Source: Patescibacteria group bacterium (GTDB taxonomy: Bacteria > Patescibacteriota > UBA1384 > CAJBMM01). Taken from it: a stretch of 64,000 nucleotides of DNA. The translations under genes and the position numbers were made by a program. The notes beneath the pieces were generated by a model. That model searched no databases. It saw only the letters and a list, made by a program, of their open reading frames with translations, and was not told the DNA's origin. Shown here piece after piece: positions 22,357-60,835 of this stretch (within the stretch, counting starts at the first letter, position 1; the number at the start of each line of letters is the position of its first letter). Location: assembly GCA_041660565.1 (NCBI GenBank), contig JBAZWC010000002.1:149520-213519 (forward strand). The letters are read 5' to 3'.

Positions 22357-22671
22357 TTACATGAACATTCTGGCGACGGTCTTTTCGATCACGAACGCTA
22401 ACACAATCACAATAATACCAATAACCGCGTTGACAATACCTTGTCGAGCTTTTCCGGCTTTGGCTTCGTCTCCACCGGCAGTAATGTATTGAATACCGGC
22501 AATTAACAGGTAAATAACGGCTAATGCACCGGCGATGAATAGAATATCACCGATAATAATGTCAACCAAAGCGCTGAACGTGTAGTTTCCGGTTAGAGGT
22601 TGTAATGGCGAGAAGTTAGCTGAATACCCTAGGTTCTGTGCATGTGCGGTGGCGATGTGGAATAGTGACAT
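22357..22671 (-). CDS. Two-TM hairpin small protein, VirB2/T4SS-pilin-like (paralog 1 of 5).
   Basis: 104 aa: TM1 - 'GIQYITAGGDEAKAGKARQG' loop - TM2. No class III (type IV pilin) leader. Confidence 0.5.
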   Translation of the reverse strand: MSLFHIATAHAQNLGYSANFSPLQPLTGNYTFSALVDIIIGDILFIAGALAVIYLLIAGIQYITAGGDEAKAGKARQGIVNAVIGIIVIVLAFVIEKTVARMFM

Positions 22672-22694
22672 ATTGTCCCCTTTGTTAATTATTA

Positions 22695-23105
22695 TTAAAG
22701 AGATATTTGATCAGATACTGGAGTTGGTGAGGATGTCGAGGTTGAATCACCTTTGAAAATTCGGGTTGCGGCGGCCTGAATGGCTACTGCCAACAGAATG
22801 ATAACAATTCCAATGATAGCATTCAAGATGGTGTTACGTGCCTTAGTCGCCTTCGACTCGTCGCCGGCCGAGGCAATGTAGCTAATACCTCCCCAAAGCA
22901 GGAAAATAATCGCCACCACGCCACCCACATAAAAAAGAATATTTAACACGGTGTCTATAATGTTGCCAATGCTCCAACCGCTATCTAAAACCGGCACCAA
23001 CTTGGTGTAATATTTAAGGCCACTGCCTAATTCTTTATTAACGTTGGCGTTAATGTCGGTAGCTGCGTGTACAGCAGCGATATGAAACAAATTCGAAAAA
23101 ATCAT
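22695..23105 (-). CDS. Two-TM hairpin small protein, VirB2/T4SS-pilin-like (paralog 2).
   Basis: 136 aa. 'WGGISYIASAGDESKATKARN' loop between two hydrophobic helices. N-terminus 'LFHIAAVHAAT' parallels paralog 1's 'LFHIATAHAQ'. Confidence 0.5.
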   Translation of the reverse strand: MIFSNLFHIAAVHAATDINANVNKELGSGLKYYTKLVPVLDSGWSIGNIIDTVLNILFYVGGVVAIIFLLWGGISYIASAGDESKATKARNTILNAIIGIVIILLAVAIQAAATRIFKGDSTSTSSPTPVSDQISL

Positions 23106-23164
23106 AATAACCTCTCTGATAATAGCTTAGATTAAAAAGCAAATGGTTGTCAAATGGTGTGGCG

Positions 23165-23461
23165 TTATGAAAGAATTCGGCCGATTACTTCTATCATCGT
23201 AAACGACAATATCACAATCATCATTCCAATTAACCCGTTAATGGCTGCTTGGCGGCCCTTTTTGGCTTTAGCTTCATCACCCGCCGAAGAAATATACAAG
23301 ATTCCACCCCAAACAATCGCCACCACCGTTACCACGCCGGCGAGTGTTAATAAAATGTTAATCCCGATAATTGCAAAAGACACCAAATAGCTGCTCGAAC
23401 CATCACCCGGATTCGGTGAGTTAATGGGGGTAAATAATTTGGCTAAAGCGGCTAAATCCAT
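23165..23461 (-). CDS. Two-TM hairpin small protein, VirB2/T4SS-pilin-like (paralog 3).
   Basis: 98 aa. 'WGGILYISSAGDEAKAKKGRQ' loop between two TM helices. Confidence 0.5.
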   Translation of the reverse strand: MDLAALAKLFTPINSPNPGDGSSSYLVSFAIIGINILLTLAGVVTVVAIVWGGILYISSAGDEAKAKKGRQAAINGLIGMMIVILSFTMIEVIGRILS

Positions 23462-23818
23462 TTAATTTCCTAGCGGCGAAACCACGTTCACCGGAATTGG
23501 GTTGATGTTTGATGCGGGCATAATGAATCGCAACACTTCATAGATTATCACATTGGCTAGAATGATAATAATCATCCCGATAAAAATATACAAAATACGC
23601 TTCTTTGCCGTTTCGGCCTTGGCTTCGTTGCCATACGCCGTAAAGTAGGTGATAGACGCCATAATCAATCCGACAAAAGCGGAAACGGCGCCAATCCAAA
23701 TTAGTAGGGTACGAGCATAATCTAAAATGTTTTGTACATCGGACAACGTTAAGCTGGTCGGATCTTTCCCGCCCGTGACAATCTCGATAATAGTTTTTCC
23801 GGTGTTCATTCCTGCCAT
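23462..23818 (-). CDS. Two-TM hairpin small protein, divergent paralog 4.
   Basis: 118 aa. 'ITYFTAYGNEAKAETAKKR' loop between two TM helices. Directly abuts paralog 3. Confidence 0.45.
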   Translation of the reverse strand: MAGMNTGKTIIEIVTGGKDPTSLTLSDVQNILDYARTLLIWIGAVSAFVGLIMASITYFTAYGNEAKAETAKKRILYIFIGMIIIILANVIIYEVLRFIMPASNINPIPVNVVSPLGN

Positions 23819-23849
23819 GTTTCTATCCTAGCATCCTTATTCTAATCAC

Positions 23850-24992
23850 CTATTGAATATAATTTACTAGCCGACTGACTATCGTGATAACGGTTATCGA
23901 AGAAATCATTATCGCCACCCCAATTGACGCCCAAACCAAATTTTTCTTCGCTTTTTCCGCTTTTGCCGCATCTCCAAACGATAATCCGTACTGTATGCCA
24001 CTAACAATGAACGCAATTCCGGCTAGTAAGCTGGCAATAATAATAAACAGGTCAATCACCGTTTTGGCTAGCCAAACAATGATTTCAGAACCGGTTTTGC
24101 CTTTCAGTGTGGATAAATCTGGCACGGAAAATGAAATGGGCGAAAGAGATCCGGAGCCACCTGAGCCTCCAGAATCTGGCGGAGTGACACCATCTTTGCT
24201 GGTGGTTGTCACGGTGTTATCGTTGTTTTTATACGCGATGAAATCTGCCCCCGTCACCAACGATCCGGTTGATCCGGATTGAAAACGGGCGTTTAGGGTG
24301 TGAGCGCCTGCGGCACTGCCCGATGCGTCCCAAGTAAACGTCATCGCTCCACCCGATAGTTTATAATCAGCGGTTTTGTCCACGCCATCAACTAACAAAT
24401 GGAACTGGTTGCCAGAAGTGTAAGCAGTCAAGTTTGATGCCGAAACCGACACTGTCACACTCGCCTGACCCCCGCTAATCCCCGATATTGCCAGATCACT
24501 GGCGTTAGGCACAATCTCGCTACTTGACGCGGCACAACCACCTTTGTAGCTGGCGATCACAAACGAGGTGGTAGCAAGGTCGTTCGTCACACTCGGCAAG
24601 CTGGCCAAACCGGTGCCTCGTAATATTATGGTGATATTTCCGTTAGTAAAGTCTTGATTACCGGCGCACAAATCCCAAGTATACGGAGAGTTAAAAACCT
24701 TGGTTTTGTCGCCACCATGTTTTTTGAATTCAGAACCACCGTTCATAATATACAGATCGTATATATTGTATAAACGTTCCGTTGGGCCTGATACCGAAAT
24801 GGTAATTTGCGGATGACTGCCGCTTTCAAAAGTGTACGACGAAGTACCCAAGGTACTACCGGGGGTTGGTGATAAAGTGATGCTGTAATCAGCCGCGTGA
24901 ACCGGCTTGGCTAGAAAAATGAACGCGAAAAGAAATAAGAAGCTTAAGTTTCTTAAGATACTTAACGTCTTGGAAATTTGTTTATATTTCAT
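23850..24992 (-). CDS. Extended pilin-like surface protein: signal peptide, Ser/Thr/Gly-rich domain, and C-terminal two-TM pilin module.
   Basis: 380 aa. Signal peptide '...FLAKPVHA/ADYS'. About 270 aa rich in S/T/G (GGSGGSGS linker). C-terminus 'VSGIQYGLSFGDAAKAEKAKKN' flanked by two TM helices, the same module as the four upstream paralogs. Confidence 0.5.
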   Translation of the reverse strand: MKYKQISKTLSILRNLSFLFLFAFIFLAKPVHAADYSITLSPTPGSTLGTSSYTFESGSHPQITISVSGPTERLYNIYDLYIMNGGSEFKKHGGDKTKVFNSPYTWDLCAGNQDFTNGNITIILRGTGLASLPSVTNDLATTSFVIASYKGGCAASSSEIVPNASDLAISGISGGQASVTVSVSASNLTAYTSGNQFHLLVDGVDKTADYKLSGGAMTFTWDASGSAAGAHTLNARFQSGSTGSLVTGADFIAYKNNDNTVTTTSKDGVTPPDSGGSGGSGSLSPISFSVPDLSTLKGKTGSEIIVWLAKTVIDLFIIIASLLAGIAFIVSGIQYGLSFGDAAKAEKAKKNLVWASIGVAIMISSITVITIVSRLVNYIQ

Positions 24993-38593: not shown

Positions 38594-38615
38594 AGCGTAA
38601 TGTTAGCACATTTTG

Positions 38616-42733: not shown

Positions 42734-42758
42734 TACATTGCTCCGCTGTTGTTTGTCT

Positions 42759-42794
42759 TAAAATATCACGTTTCGGCTAAAAAAGCAAACGGCG
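42759..42794. repeat. 36-bp direct repeat, copy 1 (left boundary of the GC-rich rpmH-dnaA island).
   Basis: 'taaaatatcacgtttcggctaaaaaagcaaacggcg' recurs at 43809-43844 with one mismatch (g/a). Confidence 0.8.
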
Positions 42795-42847
42795 ACCCCC
42801 TACAAGTAGAAGGCCGCCGAATTGTGTCTTCATGCCGATTCCTTAGC

Positions 42848-43255: not shown

Positions 43256-43267
43256 CTCACCGCCCTC

Positions 43268-43939
43268 CTAGAGCTTCGGTAGATAGCTGGAAACCACGAT
43301 GCGGTCGCAACCGCACTCCGCTGCTAGCCGTAGACAGTTAGCGGTAATACGAGCCCCGCCAAGAGTCATTGGCGCATACTCAGCGTTGCTTTCGTCTAGG
43401 TACACTATGGTCGCGTCGCCCCGCTTGAACTCCACAACGACCTTAAGATATGATCGCTTGGCAAAGACATGCAACGCGTACTCCCCAGACACACAACTAG
43501 TCTCAAAGGAGGACTGAAGGGTGAATTGCTCGGGCGGGAAGAGACTCCTAATCCGTCCCCAGCACTCCTCACAGACACGCCCCTGAGTCAGACAATCACA
43601 GTCAAGGTCGATCGGCTCGTCCATCAGCCGCTTCTTGCGACCCCGACCTAGTGTCAAAGCAGCGCCGAATGCGATGACACAGATCGCCGCGAAGGCCACA
43701 CTCAAAACCCCGATCCCGATCACCAAAGGCACATCCACGGTCACTTTCGTAACCTTTCTGCCCCCAAATGGGCGGTATATGTTGTCAGGTACTGCGCTAT
43801 CAGATTGATAAAATATCACATTTCGGCTAAAAAAGCAAACGGCGGCCTTACTGTAATGGAAGACTGTCCATCCCCCATCCCCTATAGATACTATGCATCT
43901 AAGAGCCAAAAACTCACAGATTGAGGCTCTATTTACCAT
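43268..43939 (-). CDS. Hypothetical membrane-anchored Cys-rich protein on the GC-rich rpmH-dnaA island.
   Basis: 223-aa ORF. Central TM helix (LVIGIGVLSVAFAAICVIAF), then 'DLDCDCLTQGRVCEECWGR'. The true start may be an internal Met. Confidence 0.3.
   Translation of the reverse strand: MVNRASICEFLALRCIVSIGDGGWTVFHYSKAAVCFFSRNVIFYQSDSAVPDNIYRPFGGRKVTKVTVDVPLVIGIGVLSVAFAAICVIAFGAALTLGRGRKKRLMDEPIDLDCDCLTQGRVCEECWGRIRSLFPPEQFTLQSSFETSCVSGEYALHVFAKRSYLKVVVEFKRGDATIVYLDESNAEYAPMTLGGARITANCLRLAAECGCDRIVVSSYLPKL
43809..43844. repeat. 36-bp direct repeat, copy 2 (right boundary of the GC-rich rpmH-dnaA island).
   Basis: 'taaaatatcacatttcggctaaaaaagcaaacggcg'. AT-rich sequence resumes immediately after it. 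Confidence 0.8.
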
Positions 43940-43957
43940 CTTCCAAATATGCTATGC

Positions 43958-47950: not shown

Positions 47951-48039
47951 TAGTTGACAAAAACTGGCAAAAAGTGTATAACCTAGTCAGCTAGGTTCTT
48001 TAAGATTGGCCCAAACCGTTGGGCCATTAACCGCCTCTT

Positions 48040-48645
48040 GTGGGGCAGAAAGAGACAGGGCTGACCATGTCTGATGACATGCTCGGCAAGGTTGTAAAGA
48101 AGCTCGCGAAGGTCCCCGAAATGTGGGGGTTGATCGACGACCTTCTGACGAAGATCGAGAATCCTGATATGCTCGCGGCCATTAAGCAGTGTTTGCGCGG
48201 GAGTAATCCTTGGCCGCGCACGCGGCGAGAACTGCTGCAGGCCTGCGCTAACGCTGGCATTTCGTTGTTTGGTGGGAGCGTTGAGTCGGCGGACCACGAA
48301 GGCCAACAGCTTCCGATCAGGGGTGATCTACCAGAGCTGCTGCGCGACTTCGACGAGGTCCTCCGATTGCAGGAACAAGGAAAATCGCCAGTCGACCCGA
48401 TCTTAGGTCAGCCTGACGATGACAACTGCCGACTGCTAAGTGTCGAAGAGACTCTCGTGGTTATTCTGGCGTGGTTTCGCAAGAACAAGCGGGCGCCGGA
48501 TAGAGTTGTTTATCTGAGGTGCCGCAACACCTGCGGCCGCGGCTTCTCGCTCCTCGTCTACTGGGGCCCCGATGACGGGCTGTGCGTCCGCTGGTACGGC
48601 AATGGCAATCGCGTTTCGGACGCCGGTGGGCTGCTCAGGGCGTGA
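48040..48645 (+). CDS. Hypothetical protein on a GC-rich island.
   Basis: 201-aa ORF. DNA is GC-rich relative to its flanks. Inserted between recF and the DUF721-like gene. No motif recognised. Confidence 0.3.
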   Translation: MGQKETGLTMSDDMLGKVVKKLAKVPEMWGLIDDLLTKIENPDMLAAIKQCLRGSNPWPRTRRELLQACANAGISLFGGSVESADHEGQQLPIRGDLPELLRDFDEVLRLQEQGKSPVDPILGQPDDDNCRLLSVEETLVVILAWFRKNKRAPDRVVYLRCRNTCGRGFSLLVYWGPDDGLCVRWYGNGNRVSDAGGLLRA

Positions 48646-48656
48646 CGGGGGACATG

Positions 48657-48692
48657 ACGGGTGTGGTGCAAGATGCACCGCACCCGTTTTCA
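48657..48692 (+). terminator. Rho-independent terminator candidate.
   Basis: GC-rich imperfect hairpin 'gggtgtggtgcaagatgcaccgcaccc' followed by 'gttttcatt'. Confidence 0.5.
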
Positions 48693-48722
48693 TTATCAAA
48701 AATAATCAGATAGAATCAAGCC

Positions 48723-49110: not shown

Positions 49111-52100
49111 CTAGAACCCTAGGTGAACTCTATCTGTCGTTTTATCAAACCATCCCGGGCCAATTTTGGCTGGACGGGTGGTTAGGTTGCCGTAGAGCGA
49201 TGTCGAAATTGTCTCAAACAAATTTAGGTCGTTGGTATCGTACGTGCCAATTTGATTTGGTTTAAGGTTGGTATTGCGGGTGCGATCTTTCATTAACAAT
49301 AACGAACCAATTACGCGCCGTACTTCGTATTGCGCCCCCGCTTTGATCCCTTTGCGATACGAATCGTTGCTGGTGCCGCTAAACTGGTTGGGTAGTTTAA
49401 GTTGTGAATCCAAGCTGGAGCTGGCGGTGATGTTAGCCGTTTCGGTAGTCTGACTGTTTAGAGCAGTTTTGAGTGCGGCTAACGAAGCGTTAGCTTGATT
49501 GGCGTCGGCTGATCCCGAAAGCGGGTAGTAGTCGATGGCGCAGGTAACGGTGGTTTTTCCCCAGATAAAGTTGAAGAAGATAAATAATCCTAAGCTAATT
49601 GGATCGGGATGAATTAGATATTGGATTAGGTAAATTAGCGTGCCGGATTGCAATCCCAGCACTGATTCAACTTGTCCAATTTGTTTTTGGAAGATCACGT
49701 TGGCTACCGCGGCAATAATCATCGATGTCTGGGTTTTAAACTGACGCGAGGCAGAGTTCATGTTACTGCTGGCGTTATCTAACGCTTCGTTAAACGCTTC
49801 GGTGCCCATGGTGCTGGCGTCTGACAGGCTTTGCATCGCTTGCATAGAGGCGTTTTGATAGGTGGCCAGGGCAGTTTGGTATTGGGTGATGCCTTGGTAG
49901 ATGGTCATTGTGGTGCCGGATTGCATCCCTAGCGTTTTATCGGCCCAGTTAAAAGCGGCACCTTGCCACGATGTCCACAAGTTGGCTTGCAATTTGGCAG
50001 TGTCGCCACTGAATGCGTATCCAACCAGCGCTGAGCCGGTGCCCGGGGCCAGATCGATGTTGAATACTTTGTTGGTTAGTCGATCAAAGCTGGTGCCCAG
50101 TTTATCGATGCCGGTGCGGCCGCCGGCGTCTCTGGCGGTTAGTTGAGTCTCGAGCCAAGCGTCATCACCGGAATGTGAAGTAACGTAGTCGGTTAAAATC
50201 CCCAGCGTGTCGGCCGGAATGCCCATATCTTTAAGAATTGGGATGTTGTTTACCGCGTAAGACACCATAAAGTCTTTGGCGTAGCGCCAGCGGGCGGCGT
50301 CGCCGGTTAGGCTGATCGTTTTGCCGGTGATATCAACGTAGGTGTATTGCCCGCCAATTAATGCTTTGGCGAATCCGGGCTGAATGAATTTGGCGACATC
50401 ATCAGGCAACAGTTTGCGCGCCTGATAATCCATATATTTGTACGATAGATTTTGGCGGGCGTTGTTCATAAACTGACGGTTTAGAGATTCTACATCGGAC
50501 ATATAAAGTAAGGCAATGTCGCCACCGGCGGCCGCTAGCTCAGGGTGAGCGGTTGCTAGTTGGGCGTTGATGTAATCTTGCTGTGCAATCGGATCGCCGA
50601 TAATCGAATTACGGATGTCGGCGTAGGTAATGCCAGCCTCTTTCATATCAGCGGTGTTAGCCATCATGGCGGCGCCGATGTAGGTCATGCCAATGGTAAA
50701 GTGACCATTAAATAGGTTTGCCGCATCCACGCTGGTAAACCCGTTAACGTTGACTATCTTAGCCGCTTCTTCGCTTAGAGCGTTAGTGTAGTTCCCTCGA
50801 AACATCATCTGGAGCGAAACGGTGCTAATGCCGGTGATTTGCGATAGTTTGAGAGCGCCTTGATAAATTAGAGTCCGTTTAAGCTCGGTAACGTTGTTCA
50901 TATTGGCCAGCAAGTGCGAAAAAGTACCCCTGTCCCAACCGACTTGCGCGTCAACATAAGTGCCACCAAAGCCGCCGACTAAATCTTGAAACGCTTTCAT
51001 ATTCTCACCGTTGGCCAACGCGCTGATTACGTCTTTGCCGAGAATCGAATATTTATCCGGAATACCTAAAATGCTAGCCAGCTCACCCGCAATGCCATCG
51101 GTAACGGCTTTCTTGCTGGTGGCTTGAACATAATCATCGGGTGATATGCCGCCTTGCATCATCTTCAAGGTCGAACCGCTTTCAATGCCTAACGATTGGT
51201 CGATAATATCAAATCGTTTTAGGGTGACATCAGAGAAATGACCTTCCGCGCCAACGCTTGGGCCGATGGTAGAGGTTAGATAATTGTAAACAATTTGGTC
51301 GCGCTGAGATTTCATCGCATTGGTGCTGTACGAAAAACTGACTGCGTTTAGTTGCGCTTGTACCGTGCTAGGTAAAATGATGCCGTACGCGCTGGCAAAC
51401 GATTCCGCACCGGTTTTCTTAGCCACATCTAGCACGGTATTACCGTAAAATGAACTTGCGCCGAAACCAAGTGCTTGTTCGATGGTTGACTGCCCGATGG
51501 CGGATTGTACACCGGCAATCGAATTGGCGTGGGATAGATCGATGGTGTTAAGGTGAAAGACCGAGGCGACTACGTTAGTACCTAAAGCATACAGGCTGAT
51601 GTTATCTGTTCCGGTTAGCAGAGAGGTTGCCAATGCACCCACCGGCAGACCGTGATTTTTTTCGGTGATGCGCTGGCCAATACGATTTAGGACGTTATAG
51701 TACGAACCATCAATCAAATCGTAGAAATCTTGTCCGCTTAAACGATAACCGGCTACTTTGACATCAAACTGCGACGCTAAAACCGATCCGGCATTATAAC
51801 GCAATTGAGCATTGCCAATGCGTTTTTTATAATCCGCAAAGGTGATTTTGCCGTCAAATAAATCTTTAGTCGAGCCGTAGTCGATGTGGTAATAATCATC
51901 GGTTGAGCCAAGTTGAGGCGCGATTGAGGTGAGATATCCACTGTCTTTGTTCACGATTTTAGTGTAATCAACGGACTGTAATCTGAATATTTGTTGCGCT
52001 TGTGATTGGGTTAGCGCCGATTGCCAGTTGTCACTATTTAGACTACCGGTCAATAATCCGGCAATGTTCTCTAAAGCGGATTGTCCCACGCCACCAACTC

Positions 52101-54912
52101 CGCTGTTACCGTTGGCGCCAAGTAAGTTGGCGGCAAACGAAAGGGCGGTTGGAGGCAGGTTAAGGGCGGTTGAAACCTTCATCGCGCCATATTGCAAAGC
52201 GATACTGTTTAAGGCGGTCGGGTTGTTGAGTAGCGAATAAACCAGATTCGGCGTAATTTCGGAAGGATTCGAGGCTTTAGTGGCAAGGGCGGTGTACTTG
52301 ATGGTGACGGTGTTGCTACCCAGGTTGTTGTATTGGTTGCTGGGTAGAGTAACGGTGGTGCCATCGGCGCTGACACTGTAGCTGGACGGCGAAAGCGGTG
52401 CCCCTTCGCGATCGGTAACTGTAACAGACGAAACTTTAACCGCTTTGTTTGATAGATGGTAGGTCAAAGCACTGGCGTCGCTGACCGGGAACGACTCAAT
52501 GGTTTCGCTGGTTGACGGCCGAGATCTGTCGTATTGATACAACAGATTAGCTAGGTTTTGATCGCCGATTGCTTTGGTAGCAATATTGCTGAAAGTGTAG
52601 TTCATTTGGCTTTCCGCAACTTGACGAATGGTGTTTTGGCGCTGGGTGGCCGCGGTCTGGTAGTTTTTTGATGATGAAGTTGGTGCCAAAAATGATCCGA
52701 CAACACTCAAAAACTGGTTTGGTGATAGATTTGAGGTTAGACTGGCGTTGGCGGCGGAAAAATTAAACGTCCGTTTGCCGTTAATGGCATCAAACACCAT
52801 TCCGGTATTTGATAGCACCGCATTATCTTTGTAGCTCTGGCTGAAGATTTTATCTGAGCTCATTTGCAGCGACTTGGCCACGGCATCAACCCCCAATGCT
52901 ACCCAGTAATTCTTATTGCCTTTAATCAGCTCGGATAAAAATTGATTTTGCGGATATTTGTGCAGAGTGGCGCTAGGTGGCACCGGGGTGGTTCCGCCGA
53001 AAATACTAGACTCAATACGCACGTTTGTGCCGTCAGACGTGGTGTAATAACTCGGTTGATCCATCGGTAGATCATAGGCGGTGGTGGTGCTTTGATATGC
53101 GCCGTATTGGTTTAATATTGACCCGTATCCCAACGCCGCTTCGTAATCGGGCAGGCTTAAATCACCCACTACAAAACGGTACGTCATATCGTTGCGGTCG
53201 GTATTTTTAATCTGGTCGATGTACGAAATGTAACCATCACTGAAAACCGATTTATTCTCGGTGTTAGACATATCCGGGAAAAGCTGTTGATCAAAATTAC
53301 TTAAGTTAGCTTTATATTTTTGGCCCTGGGCGCTGTTCCAAAACGAACTGTTTTTATTGGTCAAATCGCCTACCGACACGCTCGTTGGGATATTCAAGGC
53401 GCCTTTGATTAAACTGCTGGCGTAGCTAGAACTGGAACCGGTTAGACCTAATTTTCCGGTAATATTGTTGATGATGGTATTGATGGCCGAATTGGCTGAA
53501 TTAGACACATCGCCCGCACCGGTGGGTAGGTGATAATAGGTTTCCAGCTTTGCTTGCCCGATGGATAGTAATACGTTTTGCGGGCTATCTAGACTACCGC
53601 GCAGGCTTTGATTTTGCAGCCCCAAGCTTTTTTCTAGATAGCGCTGGCCGGCATTGGTCATTACTTCTTCTACAGAATTACCGTTTAAACTGCCAGCGGA
53701 CAAGTTCAGATTTTTTTCCACTGATCTGAGTAAACTGTTAGAAAGTAACGTTTCGACGTTGTTTTGGCTGGTGTTAAGTGGATTAGCGGTAGTGTCGGAA
53801 GCGTTGATGTAAGGATTAAAGACGGCCGAGTTAGGTAAATCCATTAGGTCGGCTAATGCAGCATAACCAAGAGTGCGATAATCGAGTGCGGCGGTGTTAG
53901 GATCAAACGTAGATGGTTTAATGCCCATTTGATTTGCCAACAAGTTATATCCCATCATGGTAAATGCGCCTTTTAAGGCTTGAGCTTGAAAAGTGCCATC
54001 AGACGATTCAAATCCGGCCAAAAACTGGTCTAGCCCGGCAGTGGTAGACATTGAGTCATAGGTGTTGCCGAACGGTGTTTGCACATTGGCTACGCCAGCG
54101 TCGGTTTGCCACGCCACTTTGACCGGCCGCGGCGCTTGCCGAGTGATTTTAGCACCAATCCCCATTACTCCACCCGATTTAGTGGTGCACATCACCAAGC
54201 CAGCCGCGGTAATGTCCGCCGCCTGGCCTTTTTTATGCACCGTAGACACGCCGTTGGGTTCAGTCTGCGCAGAGGTGTTTACGCTCGCGGCTTCGGTAAG
54301 CGGGGCGATGACCCCTGAGATCGACTTGTAAATCTTGATGGCGGCCGAGCTGTTAGATGGGCTAGCGCTAGCACTTGGTTGTGAGCTGGGCGCGGTTTTA
54401 AGTAACGGATAACCCGGGTTGTTTGGATCGGCTGTCTCGCCGTCAAATATTACCGGATAAGCGGTGCCAATTGAATCCGGTGAGTTCTCTTCGGCGCAAC
54501 TTTTACCAAAAGTCACATAAAGGTAAGTCATACCGGCGCCGCCATTGCTTACCGGAGTAACCAAGTAGTTTAGTGATTGCAGTACGCGCTGATCAATTTG
54601 ACCCGATCGTACCAGCTGTTGATCGCACTGAGACATCCCAATTTTGGGTAAGGTCTGATTGTTGTTGCTAAAGTTGGGGCGACGCGACTGCATATCCGAT
54701 AAATTGCTGTAAATATTGGCAATGTAGTTTGCGGATAAACTAGGAGTAAAATCTTGGGTGATATCATCTTCCCCATCTCCGGTGTCTATCTCGCCCGAGG
54801 TTACAATAGTATCACCAATACCACCCTCGGCACGCGCCTGGCCAAGTTGAGCCAACGCAATTGATGGCACCATAGTCAAACAAATTAAAATATAGGTTAT
54901 GACTTTTTGCAT
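49111..54912 (-). CDS. Giant secreted or surface protein (1933 aa), terminal gene of the T4SS-like operon.
   Basis: Uninterrupted 5.8-kb ORF. Signal peptide 'MQKVITYILICLTMVPSIALA/QLG'. S/T/N/G/A/Q-rich, largely hydrophilic, with one hydrophobic segment near the C-terminus (ISLGLFIFFNFIWG). Its start overlaps the stop of the upstream hydrolase gene. Confidence 0.6.
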   Translation of the reverse strand: MQKVITYILICLTMVPSIALAQLGQARAEGGIGDTIVTSGEIDTGDGEDDITQDFTPSLSANYIANIYSNLSDMQSRRPNFSNNNQTLPKIGMSQCDQQLVRSGQIDQRVLQSLNYLVTPVSNGGAGMTYLYVTFGKSCAEENSPDSIGTAYPVIFDGETADPNNPGYPLLKTAPSSQPSASASPSNSSAAIKIYKSISGVIAPLTEAASVNTSAQTEPNGVSTVHKKGQAADITAAGLVMCTTKSGGVMGIGAKITRQAPRPVKVAWQTDAGVANVQTPFGNTYDSMSTTAGLDQFLAGFESSDGTFQAQALKGAFTMMGYNLLANQMGIKPSTFDPNTAALDYRTLGYAALADLMDLPNSAVFNPYINASDTTANPLNTSQNNVETLLSNSLLRSVEKNLNLSAGSLNGNSVEEVMTNAGQRYLEKSLGLQNQSLRGSLDSPQNVLLSIGQAKLETYYHLPTGAGDVSNSANSAINTIINNITGKLGLTGSSSSYASSLIKGALNIPTSVSVGDLTNKNSSFWNSAQGQKYKANLSNFDQQLFPDMSNTENKSVFSDGYISYIDQIKNTDRNDMTYRFVVGDLSLPDYEAALGYGSILNQYGAYQSTTTAYDLPMDQPSYYTTSDGTNVRIESSIFGGTTPVPPSATLHKYPQNQFLSELIKGNKNYWVALGVDAVAKSLQMSSDKIFSQSYKDNAVLSNTGMVFDAINGKRTFNFSAANASLTSNLSPNQFLSVVGSFLAPTSSSKNYQTAATQRQNTIRQVAESQMNYTFSNIATKAIGDQNLANLLYQYDRSRPSTSETIESFPVSDASALTYHLSNKAVKVSSVTVTDREGAPLSPSSYSVSADGTTVTLPSNQYNNLGSNTVTIKYTALATKASNPSEITPNLVYSLLNNPTALNSIALQYGAMKVSTALNLPPTALSFAANLLGANGNSGVGGVGQSALENIAGLLTGSLNSDNWQSALTQSQAQQIFRLQSVDYTKIVNKDSGYLTSIAPQLGSTDDYYHIDYGSTKDLFDGKITFADYKKRIGNAQLRYNAGSVLASQFDVKVAGYRLSGQDFYDLIDGSYYNVLNRIGQRITEKNHGLPVGALATSLLTGTDNISLYALGTNVVASVFHLNTIDLSHANSIAGVQSAIGQSTIEQALGFGASSFYGNTVLDVAKKTGAESFASAYGIILPSTVQAQLNAVSFSYSTNAMKSQRDQIVYNYLTSTIGPSVGAEGHFSDVTLKRFDIIDQSLGIESGSTLKMMQGGISPDDYVQATSKKAVTDGIAGELASILGIPDKYSILGKDVISALANGENMKAFQDLVGGFGGTYVDAQVGWDRGTFSHLLANMNNVTELKRTLIYQGALKLSQITGISTVSLQMMFRGNYTNALSEEAAKIVNVNGFTSVDAANLFNGHFTIGMTYIGAAMMANTADMKEAGITYADIRNSIIGDPIAQQDYINAQLATAHPELAAAGGDIALLYMSDVESLNRQFMNNARQNLSYKYMDYQARKLLPDDVAKFIQPGFAKALIGGQYTYVDITGKTISLTGDAARWRYAKDFMVSYAVNNIPILKDMGIPADTLGILTDYVTSHSGDDAWLETQLTARDAGGRTGIDKLGTSFDRLTNKVFNIDLAPGTGSALVGYAFSGDTAKLQANLWTSWQGAAFNWADKTLGMQSGTTMTIYQGITQYQTALATYQNASMQAMQSLSDASTMGTEAFNEALDNASSNMNSASRQFKTQTSMIIAAVANVIFQKQIGQVESVLGLQSGTLIYLIQYLIHPDPISLGLFIFFNFIWGKTTVTCAIDYYPLSGSADANQANASLAALKTALNSQTTETANITASSSLDSQLKLPNQFSGTSNDSYRKGIKAGAQYEVRRVIGSLLLMKDRTRNTNLKPNQIGTYDTNDLNLFETISTSLYGNLTTRPAKIGPGWFDKTTDRVHLGF

Positions 54913-56261
54913 GATGCTACCTTTAATCTGGCAATAGTGTCGAGTATTTTGCTGTAACTTTTTGAGACTGTGGGATTGTGGCTACCGATTGAAGCGGCAG
55001 CGATCTGGCCATTGCCGATGTAAAAACCGACATGCCCGTATCCTCCGCCTACTTTCTTACCGTGCGAGTCGTATCTGATGGGGCTTTTGCCAGATCGGTA
55101 AAGTAAATCACCCTGGGCAAATTGTGAGTAAAAATCGGACCCGGACTTTGAGAAATCAACCTTAATTACTTCATAGCACGCTGTTTGTTGTTTGACGTAT
55201 AAATACTGATCGTAAGCGACACCAGTGAGGTTATCGTCAGCGTCGGTCTCGTGCATCACGCGAATGGCAAATGAGTTACAAGCGGTTTTATCACTAACAT
55301 CGCAAGTTGCGTATTTTTTAATTCCTTCCGGATCCGAGGCGTAATATCGAGCCAACTTAGCGATTTTTTGTCCGATTTCACTGGCTGGCACGCCACCGTA
55401 TCCCCAAATGTTTAGTTGATTAATATCATCCATCATTGCGATCAACGATTTTTTATCCACATCTGTGTCGTTGCTGGAGTAGGTAGCTAGTCGAGTGGAT
55501 AGATCGGTTAGCTTGTCTAGCGCAGCTTGATCTGGTTTTGGCCGTCCGGTTGGGGGATTGTTGGTGGCGGCACTTTGGGCGCTTTTGATTACATCGAGAA
55601 TGATTTGTTTACTGGCCGCGTCTAACTGACGGCGCGAGATTATATCCCCGGCATTCATTAAGGTGATGGTTTTTTCAGACGAGGCACTGGCTTGTTTAGG
55701 ACTACTGCCACCGTTTATTGAGACGGCGATAGCAATTGCGATCGCAATAATTATTAGTATAACCAGAAAAATAATCGCTGATACCGGATTTGCAAATAGC
55801 GCCATCGCCCCTCGCGCCACTCCTTGCCCGACTAACTTAACTCCCTGAGCTACGACTTTTGTTGCTTCAGTAGCGGCTTTTCCCGCTACTTTACCCACTT
55901 GCCCGGCGGCTTTACCGGTTTGGCTGGCTACTCTGGTGGTCTGCTCGGCCGCTTTACTGGCTTGGCTGGCAACTTTGGCTGATGCTTCAGTTGTTTTACC
56001 AACTTTGCCTACCGAGGAAGCCTCTGCCGTACTTTCCGGGCTATGCAAAAATCGATTAAAAATTGACTGACGCGGATTTACATCGTCATTAATGCCTTTA
56101 CTGGGAGTGCCGGTTGGGTTGCGGTTAATTGGTTTAAGGCCGGCTTGCTGGGCTTGGTCGTACCGGGTTTTCTGATCATCAGCATCGACAGCGCCAACCT
56201 CGCCCGTTGGTATTTCGGGAGTAACTTCATCGTCTACTATGTCAAAGTTTGGGTCTGGCAT
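54897..56261 (-). CDS. Bitopic membrane protein with C-terminal CHAP/NlpC-P60-like peptidoglycan hydrolase domain (PrgK/CwlT-like).
   Basis: 454 aa. Hydrophilic N-terminal region, central TM (VSAIIFLVILIIIAIAIAIAV). The C-terminal domain has conserved Cys ('ATCDVSDKTACNS') and 'GHVGFYIGNGQ' His motifs typical of CHAP/NlpC-P60. Confidence 0.45.
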   Translation of the reverse strand: MPDPNFDIVDDEVTPEIPTGEVGAVDADDQKTRYDQAQQAGLKPINRNPTGTPSKGINDDVNPRQSIFNRFLHSPESTAEASSVGKVGKTTEASAKVASQASKAAEQTTRVASQTGKAAGQVGKVAGKAATEATKVVAQGVKLVGQGVARGAMALFANPVSAIIFLVILIIIAIAIAIAVSINGGSSPKQASASSEKTITLMNAGDIISRRQLDAASKQIILDVIKSAQSAATNNPPTGRPKPDQAALDKLTDLSTRLATYSSNDTDVDKKSLIAMMDDINQLNIWGYGGVPASEIGQKIAKLARYYASDPEGIKKYATCDVSDKTACNSFAIRVMHETDADDNLTGVAYDQYLYVKQQTACYEVIKVDFSKSGSDFYSQFAQGDLLYRSGKSPIRYDSHGKKVGGGYGHVGFYIGNGQIAAASIGSHNPTVSKSYSKILDTIARLKVASCKKS

Positions 56262-56264
56262 ATT

Positions 56265-57518
56265 TTACTCGTAGGTTGGGGTGGTTAAGCTAATCGACAT
56301 TAATTGATTGCCAACAGTAAACATCACCCGATCGTCGTTTGGAATAGTAATCAAATTGTCGGGAGAAAAATCAATTCCGCTTGGCTTAGTGTATTGATAA
56401 TCTGTAACCGTGCCGTCAAGCGTCACATTGACCAGTTTTTGTCCGGTTGCGCTTGAAGTAACGGCAATGATCGATTTGCTACTATTCACCCAGGCAATTT
56501 TGGATACGCCGGATAGTTCTACGTTCAATGGTATAACACCACTGCCGTCAGATTTGGCCACCCACAGCAAGTTAGATGTTCCCCCGCTGGAAGTAGTGCC
56601 CGGAGCAACGTAAGCGACGTACTGGCCGTTTGGACTCCATTTTGCCCCTTCAACATCGCCCTCGGTGGTTAGACGGGTCATTTTTTGGGCAAAAATATCG
56701 TAAACATACAAATAGTTGGTTTTGGTCTGGGTGCTGTTTGATTTAAGGAAGATCTGCTGCCCGTCCGGTGACCAGGTAATAGTGGGGTGATCGATGTTGT
56801 CGATGGTCAAATTGTAAACGCGACGCAAGTTAGCGTTTTGGACATCGGACAAGATTAAAGTTTGCTCGCCATTGGTGCCGTAATAGGTGTATGCTGCTTG
56901 AATGGAGCTTGGCGACCACGCAAAATCATCAATATTGGTGCCCCATAAAGTGAGAGTTTGATTTAGTAAATCGTGGCGGGCAAAATCATATAAATACACC
57001 CCGTCTGCCTTTTTCATTAGCGCTACCGCTCCGTCCGGGCGCATTTGCACTTTGGAAATATCGGTGAGGCTGTCTGGAGTAAGCGCTACTACGTTAACGG
57101 CGGTCTGGCCGGTGACGGTTTGAGTGCGGTATAGGGTGTGCCCCAAATTTCCGACAAAATAGACGTCGCTTTTATCTAGCAACTTAGGCGAATTGGTGAC
57201 CGACGCGCTAAGCACTACCGGTGTGGGGATGTTTTTCATTAGCACGGGTAGCACCAGCTTTTGAGCGCGGGTTAAGGTGATTTTTTTCTGATAGGTTACG
57301 TATCCGTCGGCGGTTAGTTTGACCAAATGATCGCCAACCGTGGTAGTGATGGAATGGCTGTGAATAACGGCGTTATCAAAAGTGATCTCGGCGTTGTCCG
57401 GGCTAGATTGAATGATCAGCTTGGGTGAACTTAAGACAAAAGTGTACAACAAAAGCGCTCCGGCCAAAACGGCCAGCGTGGCGATAATTCCGATTAATAA
57501 GGCTTTATGTGCTTTCAT
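56265..57518 (-). CDS. Membrane-anchored TolB-like (PD40) beta-propeller protein.
   Basis: 417 aa. N-terminal TM. Repeated 'WSPDGQQIFL', 'WSPNGQYVAYVAP' and 'WSPSSIQAAY' PD40-type blades. Confidence 0.5.
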   Translation of the reverse strand: MKAHKALLIGIIATLAVLAGALLLYTFVLSSPKLIIQSSPDNAEITFDNAVIHSHSITTTVGDHLVKLTADGYVTYQKKITLTRAQKLVLPVLMKNIPTPVVLSASVTNSPKLLDKSDVYFVGNLGHTLYRTQTVTGQTAVNVVALTPDSLTDISKVQMRPDGAVALMKKADGVYLYDFARHDLLNQTLTLWGTNIDDFAWSPSSIQAAYTYYGTNGEQTLILSDVQNANLRRVYNLTIDNIDHPTITWSPDGQQIFLKSNSTQTKTNYLYVYDIFAQKMTRLTTEGDVEGAKWSPNGQYVAYVAPGTTSSGGTSNLLWVAKSDGSGVIPLNVELSGVSKIAWVNSSKSIIAVTSSATGQKLVNVTLDGTVTDYQYTKPSGIDFSPDNLITIPNDDRVMFTVGNQLMSISLTTPTYE

Positions 57519-57525: not shown

Positions 57526-58269
57526 CTACGACCCCGACAATGATGGTAAGGGAGACGCAAAATTATCTCGGGTGCAACCATTCCCTACATATATTGTAGC
57601 ACCAGAAACGTTTAAGTCACCTAGGTCGCCATTGGTTGAATTAATATAGCTTGAGTCGCTGGTGGCGATGTCAAAGTGAAATGGATTGTTACCAAATTCA
57701 CTAAATGCTCCGGTATCTACTATCCGAAACTCAATTCCTTTGCCGTTTAATTTTGCGGCAACACCGGCTTTTTTCTCTAAATCCGGAATATATGCCTTGG
57801 TACCGTATTTGTAAGTATTAGTGCTACCCTTTAATGTCTCCAGGTTGGCGGCCAAGCCTGCGTAATTGCCCTCCTTGGCACTTGAATATTTGCCATTAAG
57901 ATAATCTTCAAGTTTGTGTACTACTACGCCGCGAGCATCATTTACCCCTCCTTCAATGCCGCCTTTGCCAGGAACATAGGTGGTTGCCTCTTTTAGCGTG
58001 ACGGCGTTGCAATCCGGGCCAACGTTGACTGTTCCGCCGGCGACAGTTGAATTGCCGGTTGGTTTATTCCACGTGCCGCTGGGGTTGTAAAAAACAGCAA
58101 AGATCACGCCAAACATGATCAACGGGATAGCAATGGCGGCCACGCCTAAAATAATCATCAGAATTTTGCGTCCGGATTTCTTTGGTGCAGGTTGTTGATT
58201 TTCAGTCTCGTCAGGCATATAAACATCCAAACAATTTTTAATTTTTAATTTTAAATGAAAGGTAGCCAA
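57526..58269 (-). CDS. Membrane-anchored protein with possible 3D/DPBB (lytic) domain.
   Basis: 247 aa. TM (ILMIILGVAAIAIPLIMFGVIFAV). C-terminal 'FRIVDTGAFSEFGNNPFHFDIATSD' resembles the Asp-rich 3D domain of MltA/YuiC-type hydrolases. Weak call. Confidence 0.3.
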   Translation of the reverse strand: MATFHLKLKIKNCLDVYMPDETENQQPAPKKSGRKILMIILGVAAIAIPLIMFGVIFAVFYNPSGTWNKPTGNSTVAGGTVNVGPDCNAVTLKEATTYVPGKGGIEGGVNDARGVVVHKLEDYLNGKYSSAKEGNYAGLAANLETLKGSTNTYKYGTKAYIPDLEKKAGVAAKLNGKGIEFRIVDTGAFSEFGNNPFHFDIATSDSSYINSTNGDLGDLNVSGATIYVGNGCTRDNFASPLPSLSGS

Positions 58270-58355: not shown

Positions 58356-60149
58356 TTATTCTTGTACTTTCTGTTGATCCATAATTTCTTGTGGGTTGGT
58401 GGTGATAATTTGGTGCTCGTTATAACTGGCGATAATCTTAATGGCCACGTGTTCTTGACCGGCAAAGAACAGCCCTTCACCAATGTCTGATTCTAATAGC
58501 AGCATTTTCTCACCGTCGGTTAAGCCAAATATTTGACTGATTTTTTCGATTGATGAGGTGGATTGTTTGAGCAAAATCTGTAATGACGAGTTGGAAACCA
58601 CCGCCTTACCATATTGCCCTTGCAAAAAATCCTCAACGTCTTGGCTGATAATGGTTAATCCTAAGAAATATTTACGCGATCGCTTGGCTAATCCGTACAA
58701 AAATCGCGCCGAATCTTCGTATTGCATCATGGTCCACGCTTCATCCACCACCATAATACGCTTCTTAAAGTTAAGTCTAATTTGAGTCCAAATGTAGTTC
58801 AAAATCACATACATTGCTACCGGTCGTAACTGCTCTTCCAAATCGCGAATGGAAAACACCACAAAGCCCTCACCCAAAGCAAAGTTGGTTGGTTGATTAA
58901 ACAGGCCGGCATAGGTGCCCTCAGTATATTTGGAGAGGCGCTTGGTTAGCGAATCTGTGCCCGAAAGGTTGGCCAGCACCGAGACTAAATCGGACATTAC
59001 CGGCGGCTCGTTAGTTTGAGTTTTTGGATCAACGGTAATATCTTTGATGGCGTAGGTTTCATACAGCGCTTTGTCCAAAATCGAATCTTCCTCGGGAGTT
59101 AAGCCGCCAGTCATCAGTGAAATTAGACCGTGTAAATCGGTGATAGTCGAACGTAAAACATCGTCACCGGTTTGATCGTTGTCGGCGTGCGGTAAATCAA
59201 ACGGGTTAATGCGTTTTTCGGAATTCAGGCTAACCTCAAGATAACTGCCTCCTACTGCATCACACAGTGCTTTGTACTCGTTTTCCGGATCAACAATAAT
59301 GATGTCGGTGCCTAGCATTAGGCTGCGCAGCACCTCTAACTTGACCACGTATGATTTTCCGGCGCCCGCCTTGGCAAAGACCACCGAGTTGGCGTTTTCC
59401 AACTTAAACCGATCAAATAAAATTAACGAATTATTGTGACGGTTAACGCCATACAAAATGCCTTCGTTGCTGGTCAGTGTGGCGGTGGTAAAGGGGAAGG
59501 TGGTGGAAAGCGAACCGGTGTCTAGGTTGCGGGTGATGTTTAGTTGATCGTTGTGCAAGGGCAGTGAGGCGTTAAAACCCTGCTCCATCTGATAAAGCGC
59601 CTGTTTGGTGTAAATTAACATTCCGCCAAGCACCGATTCCAGCTGTCTGGTGATGGTTTTCAAATCTTCGCGTGATTTAGCGTAAATAGTGAAATATAAC
59701 GCGTAGTGAAATAGGCGAGATTCGCCTTTTTGTAACACATCGCGCAACTCTTCGATATCACCCACCGCTGTTTCTAATTCGGGATCTCGCACCATCCCTT
59801 TTTCCTGTTTGATGGTGACGGACGATGAAAGTTGCCCCAACTCTTTTTTAAGATCGGTCATTACATCTTTGGTATCAAGCGGATAAATGAACATCGAAAT
59901 GTCCATTGGGATATCGTAGTCAATGATGTTAGCCAGCCAGTTAGTCTCCAAATAACGCGGGTAAGTGTAGGTGAACAGGGTTTTGACAAACTGTTCGCCC
60001 AGTTGAATATCGTTTGGCGACACTACAAAAACCGACGGCGCAATAATATCTAGCACGCTCGCCATGCCCTCGGTAAAGACTTGCTGGGCATTGTTTTGAG
60101 CCGCAACTGCTTGCTTGTCTAGTTTAATTGGGTTTGGCGTGTCGGTCAT
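58356..60149 (-). CDS. VirB4/TraC/ConE-family type IV secretion ATPase, C-terminal (ATPase) part.
   Basis: 597 aa. Walker A 'AKAGAGKSY', 'IIVDPENEY', Walker B 'MVVDEAWT'. Its ATG overlaps the stop of the upstream ORF as ATGA. Confidence 0.75.
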   Translation of the reverse strand: MTDTPNPIKLDKQAVAAQNNAQQVFTEGMASVLDIIAPSVFVVSPNDIQLGEQFVKTLFTYTYPRYLETNWLANIIDYDIPMDISMFIYPLDTKDVMTDLKKELGQLSSSVTIKQEKGMVRDPELETAVGDIEELRDVLQKGESRLFHYALYFTIYAKSREDLKTITRQLESVLGGMLIYTKQALYQMEQGFNASLPLHNDQLNITRNLDTGSLSTTFPFTTATLTSNEGILYGVNRHNNSLILFDRFKLENANSVVFAKAGAGKSYVVKLEVLRSLMLGTDIIIVDPENEYKALCDAVGGSYLEVSLNSEKRINPFDLPHADNDQTGDDVLRSTITDLHGLISLMTGGLTPEEDSILDKALYETYAIKDITVDPKTQTNEPPVMSDLVSVLANLSGTDSLTKRLSKYTEGTYAGLFNQPTNFALGEGFVVFSIRDLEEQLRPVAMYVILNYIWTQIRLNFKKRIMVVDEAWTMMQYEDSARFLYGLAKRSRKYFLGLTIISQDVEDFLQGQYGKAVVSNSSLQILLKQSTSSIEKISQIFGLTDGEKMLLLESDIGEGLFFAGQEHVAIKIIASYNEHQIITTNPQEIMDQQKVQE

Positions 60150-60835
60150 GTTGTCTTGTTTTCAGTTGATATTATATTTTCGGTTAACTCGGTTGGTTGC
60201 TCAACACGCTCAGATGCGGCAATGTCAAAGTTATAAGTGTTATAAAGCGATCGAATGATACCATCGGAGTCTAAAACAGTAGTCTTCAATCCAAAAGATG
60301 CCAAGCCGCTGGCAACCACGTTGGCTCGCTGCATCAACTCTTCGCGATGAATGTTAAATTGTGATTCGCTAATTTTTAAGTAAGATGGCGCTTTGCTCTT
60401 AAACAATCCGGCAAAAAGTGATTTGCTGTCCTGCACCACCGGCGAATACGAAATCACCACAAAAAATTTTTTATCCATAATGTTAGCCACCGTAATTAGC
60501 TCGCGCACATAGGCGACGTAATCGGTAGTCTGAGTTTTAATCAGCTCATTTTTCTGCCCCACGGTAGTAGATTCAAGCTGTTTTAAGTACGGCTCCAAAT
60601 CTAACGAACGTGATTGCATTACAATCTGAATTGAGTAATTAAGAGAGTTCAAAAAGTTTTGATAGGCCATTATGAGGGCGTTTTGTTCTTGCTCAGATTT
60701 CAACATAAAGTTGGTTGAGCCAACAGAAATTATGGCACGATAAGATCCATCGTGCATAATTACTACCCCGTTTTCAACTCCAACCAGAGGAAGGTGAGAC
60801 TGGGTGCTGGCCGGTTTGGCAGTTTTTTCTGCCAT
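60146..60835 (-). CDS. VirB4-family ATPase, N-terminal domain as a separate ORF (split VirB4).
   Basis: 229 aa. 'LPLVGVENGVVIMHDGSYRAIISVGSTNFMLKSEQEQNALIMAYQNFLNSL' matches the N-terminal domain of Gram-positive-type VirB4 (Tn916 Orf16/ConE-like). The stop overlaps the next ORF's start, and combined length is 826 aa. Confidence 0.6.
   Translation of the reverse strand: MAEKTAKPASTQSHLPLVGVENGVVIMHDGSYRAIISVGSTNFMLKSEQEQNALIMAYQNFLNSLNYSIQIVMQSRSLDLEPYLKQLESTTVGQKNELIKTQTTDYVAYVRELITVANIMDKKFFVVISYSPVVQDSKSLFAGLFKSKAPSYLKISESQFNIHREELMQRANVVASGLASFGLKTTVLDSDGIIRSLYNTYNFDIAASERVEQPTELTENIISTENKTT

Follow-up and report, generated by a model that had tools for sequence, protein, structure and literature searches.

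Patescibacteria carry a chromosomal type IV secretion system (T4SS) that is MPF-FATA-like, is located near dnaA, usually comes without a relaxase and is accompanied by pilin arrays (PMC12102498). In the survey that described it, these systems yielded no adhesin, and homologues of VirB6, VirB8 or VirB1 were few (PMC12102498). The T4SS is essential for epibiotic growth in Southlakia epibionticum (Saccharibacteria), the one species tested (PMC10633639), and the cargo of the Patescibacteria T4SS and its way through the cell walls are still unsolved (PMC11665869, PMC12102498, PMC10633639). In S. epibionticum the gene directly downstream of virB4 encodes SEML1_0007, an essential protein of 1113 amino acids that carries a Hedgehog/DD-peptidase domain with 'Peptidase M15B' as the best Foldseek match (PMC10633639 supplement); a lysozyme/cysteine-peptidase protein and a PEGA protein follow (PMC10633639). 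Here we describe a gene for a protein of 1933 amino acids, hereafter called the giant protein, in 64,000 nucleotides from a Patescibacteria group bacterium (GenBank assembly GCA_041660565.1, contig JBAZWC010000002.1, positions 149,520 to 213,519). This whole stretch is called the window, and its positions are used throughout.

We propose that the giant protein is a Sec-exported, membrane-tethered envelope subunit of the T4SS, with an M15-like head that binds peptidoglycan or cleaves it in an atypical way, and we put the probability of this reading at roughly 55%. The gene is a member of a T4SS operon, is coupled to a gene for a wall hydrolase and belongs to a family with a common architecture. 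The operon consists of tightly packed, co-directional genes on the minus strand, which are given here in the order of transcription.

60146..60835, minus strand: TrsD-like protein, 229 amino acids (NCBIfam TrsD 9e-7 and VirB4_plasma N-terminal region 9e-10, both below cut-off)
58356..60149, minus strand: VirB4 ATPase of the conjugative CD1110 / MPF-FATA type, 597 amino acids (NF045971 E 1e-108, above cut-off; Pfam P-loop_TraG 6.5e-29)
57526..58269, minus strand: bitopic protein, 247 amino acids (no Pfam or PDB match)
56265..57518, minus strand: PEGA and TolB-like beta-propeller protein, 417 amino acids (Pfam PEGA 1.4e-7 and PD40/DPPIV_N; TolB propeller 1.3e-8)
54897..56261, minus strand: partner protein of 454 amino acids, with a repeat region (cytoplasmic), one transmembrane helix and an extracellular NlpC/P60-like wall hydrolase domain
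49111..54912, minus strand: the giant gene, 1933 amino acids and stop, from the ORF list and translation

The VirB4 gene is found four genes upstream of the giant gene on the same strand, with overlaps or short gaps between the genes. The giant ATG is preceded by AAAGG and overlaps the stop codon of the 454-residue partner by 16 nucleotides; the start of the giant gene is translationally coupled to the gene for a membrane-anchored NlpC/P60-like hydrolase. Residues 365-434 of this partner match PDB entry 7cfl, 'cell wall hydrolase', with E 0.006. Beyond the giant gene, the flank on the plus strand holds a DciA-like gene, recF, dnaN and dnaA. This context matches that of the published chromosomal Patescibacteria T4SS (PMC12102498), and the operon is a chromosomal, conjugation-like T4SS of Patescibacteria.

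VirB4 is itself encoded in two genes, one for the 229-residue protein resembling the VirB4 N-domain and, after a 4-nucleotide overlap, one for the 597-residue ATPase. In full-length VirB4 models, the ATPase covers no more than the C-terminal three quarters.

Gene order was compared in eight informative loci, the window together with L001 and L003-L008, which are few compared with the 274 sequence clusters of the family described below. The giant gene is the last gene in 8/8 of these loci, following genes for TrsD, VirB4, one or more hydrolases, the PEGA/propeller protein and a protein of 450-560 amino acids, and the PEGA/propeller protein is kept in all loci. An earlier note on this DNA, made from the sequence alone, had placed the giant gene at the end of an operon of envelope-spanning components, and this placement held, the operon being a VirB4-based T4SS. 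The same operon order is found in L006-L008, where the giant proteins are only 23-25% identical to that of the window, and the operon abuts DciA-recF-dnaN-dnaA in four loci (L001, L006, L007 and the window). The hydrolase genes differ by locus, with CHAP, Amidase_2, Amidase_3 and Peptidase_C39_2 in L006-L008. Across the loci, identity is 65-85% for VirB4, 31-69% for the TrsD-like protein, 27-52% for the PEGA/propeller protein and 24-46% for the giant protein. Such a low value for the giant protein against that for VirB4 is what one would expect if a conserved motor had an exposed partner that evolves fast.

A fusion was found in L001, where a protein of 370 amino acids (5805-6917) corresponds to the 247-residue protein of the window joined to the NlpC/P60-like C-terminus of the 454-residue protein. 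A second protein in L001, of 464 amino acids (8607-10001), matches the N-terminal part of the 454-residue protein only. As Rosetta-stone evidence, the fusion ties the 247-residue and NlpC/P60 modules to a common wall-remodelling task, and judged by its fusion partner in L001 the 247-residue bitopic protein is probably a wall-remodelling module. Its more specific assignment as a 3D-domain lytic transglycosylase has no database support (Pfam, PDB) and is kept solely as a conjecture drawn from the L001 fusion.

The open reading frame (ORF) at 49111-54912 is genuine and did not arise in assembly, because it has no repeats, the identical protein is present in several sources and full-length orthologues exist. 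It was described in the earlier note as a single uninterrupted ORF and as the largest gene of the window. Both descriptions are correct: one frame with an ATG start covers 1933 codons, and the next ORFs, of 637, 636, 616 and 597 amino acids, are about three times shorter. The protein is 100% identical to NCBI WC773_03630 from a metagenome-assembled genome (MAG) labelled 'Patescibacteria group bacterium', and the same sequence was found in JGI and Logan. Besides this identical match there are 11 homologues, and nine full-length orthologues have 40-49% identity.

For an ORF of this size, three other origins have to be considered: an artefact of assembly, since chimeras can occur among the large ORFs of metagenome bins, a tape-measure gene of a prophage, and a cargo gene of a mobile element. 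The guanine plus cytosine (GC) content also differs, with 0.47-0.50 at the giant gene against about 0.41-0.45 in most of the window, but the entire T4SS operon is raised likewise. Internal repeat detection, which the earlier note had called for, found no DNA repeats able to cause misassembly: the DNA of the giant gene has no tandem repeats, and its two direct repeats are short and at chance level. Orthologues from independent assemblies have the same recF-dnaN-dnaA flanks in four loci. A PHROG search at E<=0.01 gave no match for the giant protein or for five operon and upstream neighbours, and the flanks consist of recF, dnaN, dnaA and T4SS genes. No tape-measure match was therefore found; a strong match of this kind, with phage structural genes nearby, was what the earlier note had named as evidence against its view. 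We consider all three explanations effectively refuted by the repeat, orthologue and PHROG results and give them next to no credit.

The family of the giant protein was collected by an exhaustive profile search with residues 1000-1933. This gave 274 cluster representatives (50% identity) at E<=1e-3 and 185 at E<=1e-30, nearly all with lengths of 1400-3300 amino acids. Word-indexed searches found 15 relatives, and a related-locus search with the close alignment led to three genomes. The few named members are all 'hypothetical protein' from MAGs of Patescibacteria or Berkelbacteria. Modules common at 21-26% identity cover roughly residues 105-520, 1020-1360 and 1600-1933. Hydrophobic segments are positioned at the N-terminus in most members and 120-200 amino acids from the C-terminus, with none in the middle of the protein. 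The layout of the family is a signal sequence, an N-terminal M15-like domain, about 1400 amino acids of helical repeats, a hydrophobic hairpin and a conserved tail.

Searches of Pfam, NCBIfam and PHROGs with the full giant protein and with six sub-segments gave nothing above threshold, the full-family profile had no match in a PDB sequence search, and no Pfam domain was found in any member tested, including the three largest (>3100 amino acids). The family is an unannotated one of Patescibacteria, without Pfam, NCBIfam or PDB relatives, and as far as full-text searches show it is not mentioned in the two papers cataloguing patescibacterial T4SS genes. The remote homology search suggested in the earlier note thus gave no Pfam, PHROG or PDB family match and, for the N-terminal domain, a sub-threshold M15/VanY likeness. 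The parts of the giant protein are given here from the N-terminus to the C-terminus.

54850..54912, minus strand: predicted Sec-type signal peptide, residues 1-21, with the signal peptidase I cut inferred after SIALA
54043..54651, minus strand: N-terminal domain, M15/VanY-like (LAS-type), residues ~88-290, without the usual third zinc ligand and catalytic Glu
54211..54243, minus strand: TVHKKGQAADI, residues 224-234, the [ST]xHxxGxAxD[IV] motif
54106..54111, minus strand: W268-Q269, at the position of the second His by manual register with VanY EPWH
49738..54042, minus strand: alpha-helical body, residues ~291-1725, with ~9 copies of a degenerate 'GQxxlExxLGLpxGSl' helical repeat
52285..52518, minus strand: small beta-sandwich (Ig-like) insert, residues 799-876, with strands predicted by AlphaFold2 (predicted local distance difference test, pLDDT, ~65-80)
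49555..49734, minus strand: putative membrane-inserted hairpin, residues 1727-1786, with 2-3 amphipathic or hydrophobic helices round an HPDP turn
49114..49554, minus strand: conserved C-terminal domain, residues 1787-1933 (~145 amino acids), CxxDxYP ... NDSYRxGxxAGAQYEV ... DRIHLGY

The N-terminus reads MQK-VITYILICLTMVPSIALA/Q, with a layout of n-, h- and c-regions and with A-L-A at positions -3 to -1 of the predicted cut. The N-terminal 19-mer has a Kyte-Doolittle value of 1.96 and is the sole segment of the giant protein above 1.4. The Sec signal cut after SIALA that the earlier note had proposed is supported by this layout, the A-x-A box and the hydrophobic core, as is its description of an exported envelope protein of a candidate phyla radiation (CPR) bacterium, both as predictions. 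A lipoprotein reading of the giant protein was rejected.

The N-terminal domain was found in 132 of 156 fetched family members, and 124 of these domains were aligned for the analysis of conservation. Conserved residues are D107-x-R109, L-x-Y-L-x-x-P, GGAG at 124-127, [ST]224-x-H226, A231-x-D233-I234, D238, P263 and W268-Q269. In M15 (LAS) peptidases the pattern [ST]xHxxGxAxD[IV] holds the His and Asp zinc ligands. This half of the M15 signature is present in the giant protein as T224-x-H226-x-x-G-Q-A231-x-D233-I234, where H and D are each kept in 90% of the 124 domains, A in 88% and I in 92%, and the strict motif occurs in 82 of the 156 sequences. The earlier note had seen no recognisable catalytic motif in the protein, which is true insofar as no Pfam model reaches its threshold but misses this family-wide M15-type motif at residues 224-234.

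The other half of the signature differs. The VanY alignment has an invariant E-x-W-H, which provides the catalytic Glu and the second zinc His, whereas the giant protein has x-x-W268-Q269, and across the 124 domains no acid is conserved two residues before the Trp. Q269 is invariant (124/124) and W268 is kept in 84%; the register of W-Q against EPWH was set by eye, as hhalign did not reach this segment. Since the defining E-x-W-H fails, the domain is not filed as an M15 peptidase.

Several profile comparisons point in the direction of M15. Among 21 N-terminal domains there were seven weak Pfam matches, of which five are to the two M15 families, Peptidase_M15_3 (three) and VanY (two, best E 0.007), and a sixth is to DUF5715. 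The only PDB sequences matched by the N-domain profile are VanY-B structures (E ~0.9), with an alignment that begins at the D-x-R helix and extends as far as the motif, where VanY-B SEHQLGLAVDI aligns. Comparison by hhalign with a six-sequence VanY alignment gave P 8e-4 and a probability of 24%, and comparison with E. coli MepK gave P 9e-3, matching SYHTKGQAMDF. On balance we favour, from these profile likenesses, a divergent LAS-type domain that may bind peptide stems or act atypically.

The giant protein was modelled with AlphaFold2 in two halves, from alignments of 9 and 12 sequences, and only coarse features of the models are trustworthy. With low to moderate confidence, the protein is predicted to be overwhelmingly alpha-helical from ~290 to 1790. 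The 'GQxxlExxLGLpxGSl' repeat occurs in ~9 copies here and in 5-11 copies in relatives. The one predicted beta-sandwich, at 799-876, has sub-threshold matches to Shr-like_HID (E 0.002) and RrgB isopeptide domain D2 (E 2e-4), which are the only Pfam/NCBIfam matches on the giant protein, and Foldseek gave weak pilin, S-layer and phage Ig-like matches for it.

These data bear on a different function, that of an adhesin or fibre that would stand free on the surface, attach to the host and act independently of the secretion machine, sharing the operon for co-expression only. Such a role, close to the one favoured in the earlier note, would suit a protein with a signal peptide, a huge size, a polar composition (S+T+N+G+A+Q ~50%, K+R+D+E only ~15%) and 27 N-x-S/T sequons, that evolves fast compared with VirB4 and carries an Ig-like insert at 799-876, all the more as Patescibacterial T4SSs have no identified adhesin so far (PMC12102498). 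The composition is not of low complexity, as the note had it: Shannon entropy is 3.7-4.0 bits in each 100-amino-acid block, and there are no sequence repeats. Nor did structure prediction yield the beta-solenoid or Ig-repeat fibre that was looked for, the model being a helical body with a single beta-sandwich. Adhesin signatures are likewise missing: there is no adhesin domain, the fold searches of the giant protein gave no adhesin fold, and LPxTG-like motifs are absent from the window protein and from the 60 C-terminal residues of 137 family members. Conservation is highest in the N-terminal domain and at the C-terminus, in the hairpin and tail, and does not point to a variable tip, and strict synteny with translational coupling in the T4SS operon is kept even in relatives less than 25% identical. 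We therefore hold an independent adhesin to be unlikely.

The earlier note had further described one hydrophobic segment near the C-terminus. A hydrophobic feature is indeed there, but it is a conserved cluster of 2-3 moderate segments at residues 1730-1785 and not one segment. The best-conserved stretch of the protein overlaps it (0.83 over residues 1751-1800), and the C-terminal domain that follows is also found in 23%-identical relatives; this domain has no Pfam match and an AlphaFold2 pLDDT mostly <60. Most relatives have 1-3 segments above 1.6 Kyte-Doolittle at the hairpin (up to 3-6), which in many of them is above ordinary transmembrane thresholds.

A hairpin of this kind could also belong to a Sec-exported substrate or a host-membrane translocator that is released or pushed out by the T4SS, with the hairpin entering the host membrane and the head breaching the host wall. 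Pertussis toxin offers an analogy, as it is exported by Sec and then released by the Ptl system, and phage tape-measure proteins offer another for the action on the host. A Sec signal together with a moderately hydrophobic hairpin fits a switch from soluble to membrane form, and a long helical body, a wall-enzyme-like domain and late hydrophobic segments would be in place in such a protein. To our knowledge there is no precedent in monoderm T4SSs, which counts against it, as do the lack of sequence similarity to tape-measure proteins or any phage family and the lack of any direct sign of release. The far more hydrophobic hairpin of many relatives, with up to 3-6 segments, suits a permanent anchor and also argues against a translocator. 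The Patescibacteria T4SSs have no coupling protein or relaxase nearby (PMC12102498), which would be consistent with release of the protein, a reading that we nevertheless regard as rather improbable.

A polytopic VirB6 was not seen in the operon, and the same C-terminal helices might instead take its place as the channel through the membrane. No VirB6/TrbL or PrgH match was obtained for the operon genes tested, VirB6 is scarce in several Patescibacteria classes (PMC12102498), and extended VirB6 proteins exist (PMC12857230). VirB6 proteins have at least five transmembrane helices, against 2-3 weak ones at 1730-1785 in the giant protein, and there is no TrbL/VirB6 Pfam signal in it. The window ends at 64000, and a VirB6 or PrgI gene may lie just upstream: no PrgI/VirB3 gene was seen in the window, and L001 and L007 have a PrgI gene at this place. 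A replacement of VirB6 by the giant protein is in our view very unlikely.

For the giant protein as a tethered T4SS envelope subunit, the following mechanism is the most likely. The protein would be exported by Sec and lose its signal peptide, and the C-terminal hairpin and tail would tether it to its own membrane beside the VirB4-powered translocon. The long helical body would span the wall and project through or beyond it. The M15-like head would keep the His/Asp half of the zinc site, with a Gln in place of the second His of VanY and no conserved catalytic Glu; with half of the site kept and the second His and the Glu gone, it may bind the peptide stems of peptidoglycan or cleave them atypically. 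Together with the neighbouring hydrolases, the head would make a passage and keep it open, in the own wall or in that of the host, for the secretion channel and the VirB2-like pilus.

A bolder variant makes the giant protein a host-engaging, tape-measure-like conduit. A pseudo-M15 head would then read host peptidoglycan stems and help to set the host range, the body would bridge the two cells and the hairpin would form or gate a way through the membrane for effectors or for macromolecules derived from the host. We regard this variant as a possibility, and a doubtful one.

Several points weigh against the proposal of a tethered envelope subunit with an M15-like head. The M15 relationship is sub-threshold in every test; four independent tests agree, and none is significant alone. 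The Pfam gathering score was not reached, with 16.6 bits for VanY (cut-off 25) and 13.8 bits for M15_3 (cut-off 23.2). When the 124-sequence N-domain alignment, which has long inserts, was compared with VanY by hhalign, P was 0.023 and the probability 2%, and a word-indexed search with the N-domain profile gave no match. The models are of little help for the head: mean pLDDT is 54 and 66 and the predicted template modelling score is 0.42 and 0.35 for the two halves, which is no confident structure, and pLDDT is <50 for residues 1-323 (9-sequence alignment), the whole N-terminal domain included. The hairpin in the clade of the window protein peaks at a Kyte-Doolittle value of only ~1.66 over 15 residues and may not cross the membrane. 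The topology and the T4SS role are read from context and sub-threshold similarity, and operon position is linkage, not a structural role. The wall on which the head would act could be either the own wall or that of the host.

The Patescibacterial T4SS is already known, and the giant protein would be an additional, lineage-specific envelope component of this monoderm-type system. Published surveys sought the known T4SS parts; to these the giant protein adds a conserved unannotated component with a domain plan, the largest protein of the operon, represented by at least 274 sequence clusters. The family is a good candidate for the component with which the T4SS engages a wall. Binding or cleavage of peptidoglycan by the M15-like head, if true, would give a handle on how ultra-small parasites dock a secretion machine on a wall, and the head would then be a candidate determinant of host specificity. 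Even taken conservatively, the family merits its own profile in annotation databases.

A second group of T4SS genes is found in the window at a distance from the operon.

22357..24992, minus strand: array of five VirB2-like T4SS pilin genes, for proteins of 104, 136, 98 and 118 amino acids and a 380-amino-acid protein with a C-terminal pilin domain, ~24 kilobases (kb) from the operon

The Pfam T4SS_pilin matches range from 5.5e-13 to 1.5e-5, and four of the five reach the cut-off of 26.6 bits, the 380-residue protein having 25.4 bits. In the latter an N-terminal extracellular region is fused to the C-terminal pilin domain. A pilin from L006 finds the array of the window by tblastn. For any filament, these five VirB2-like pilins are better candidates than the giant protein. 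The array is flanked by a divergent ORF of 534 amino acids (20648-22252, plus strand), which, from its sequence, may be a PilB/T2SSE-type ATPase. Three tandem ORFs of 191 amino acids at 38-39.8 kb were considered as pilins and rejected; they are a methyltransferase, an NT5C nucleotidase and one ORF without a match.

Upstream of the T4SS operon and co-directional with it on the minus strand are genes for a bitopic protein of 482 amino acids (60992-62440), a protein of 179 amino acids (62502-63041) and a TPR protein of 195 amino acids (63202-63789). These three genes have no counterpart in any related locus and, apart from TPR, no Pfam match. The rnpA-dnaA and recF-DciA intervals (42700-43940 and 47980-48700), which are otherwise conserved, contain ORFs without Pfam matches at GC 0.48-0.50, for example 223 amino acids at 43268-43939 and 201 amino acids at 48040-48645, and related loci have other genes or none there.

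GC peaks at 0.54, against about 0.43, at 32001-34000, where an ORF of 591 amino acids resembling an alpha/beta-hydrolase or lipase is found (32294-34069; DUF7379/PGAP1/LCAT), and this peak may be foreign DNA. A run of small enzymes on the minus strand at 35266-39191 comprises an HNH endonuclease, a NUDIX protein, a histidine phosphatase, a patatin-like phospholipase, a methyltransferase and an NT5C 5'-nucleotidase. Of these, the nucleotidase and the NUDIX protein may have a part in the salvage of nucleotides by the CPR cell.

Among known systems, the VirB1-like wall hydrolases of Gram-positive conjugation systems (PrgK of pCF10, TraG of pIP501, CwlT of ICEBs1 and TcpG) are proteins of 300-900 amino acids with lytic transglycosylase, CHAP or LytM domains. 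They are membrane-associated products of T4SS operons that act on peptidoglycan and thereby let the channel through a thick wall, and the neighbours of the giant protein supply NlpC/P60 or CHAP modules. They are not known to have the M15-like head, the 1400-residue helical body or the C-terminal hairpin of the giant protein, and no Pfam signal of SLT, CHAP or M23 was found in the giant protein. VanY and MepK (M15A) have in common with its head the motif, the preceding D-x-R helix and the order of elements; they differ in that VanY has E-x-W-H where the giant protein has x-x-W-Q, with an invariant Gln and no conserved acid, and the scores stay below the family thresholds.

The extended VirB6 proteins of Rickettsiales and the VirB6-like proteins ConG, TcpH and PrgH are, like the giant protein, T4SS membrane proteins with very large hydrophilic extensions, but they have at least five transmembrane helices and a recognisable TrbL/VirB6 domain, against 2-3 weak segments and no such signal here. 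The surface proteins PrgA, PrgB and PrgC of pCF10 are among the closest systems, but the LPXTG sorting signal and Ig-repeat domains of the PrgB type are not found in the giant protein. Phage tape-measure proteins with lytic domains, such as Pb2 of T5, are also very long and helical, with a wall-enzyme-type domain and late hydrophobic segments; the giant protein differs from them in having no PHROG match and no phage genes nearby, and its gene is located at a conserved core position of the chromosome.

SEML1_0007, compared by description, is likewise a large exported 'hypothetical protein' with an M15-type domain, encoded in a virB4 operon that lies next to recF and the region of the origin. 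It is shorter than the giant protein (1113 against 1933 amino acids), its M15 domain is C-terminal (951-1105), and its gene directly follows virB4 instead of being the last of the operon. By analogy, SEML1_0007 would be an independent precedent for an M15-like domain in a protein of the virB4 operon.

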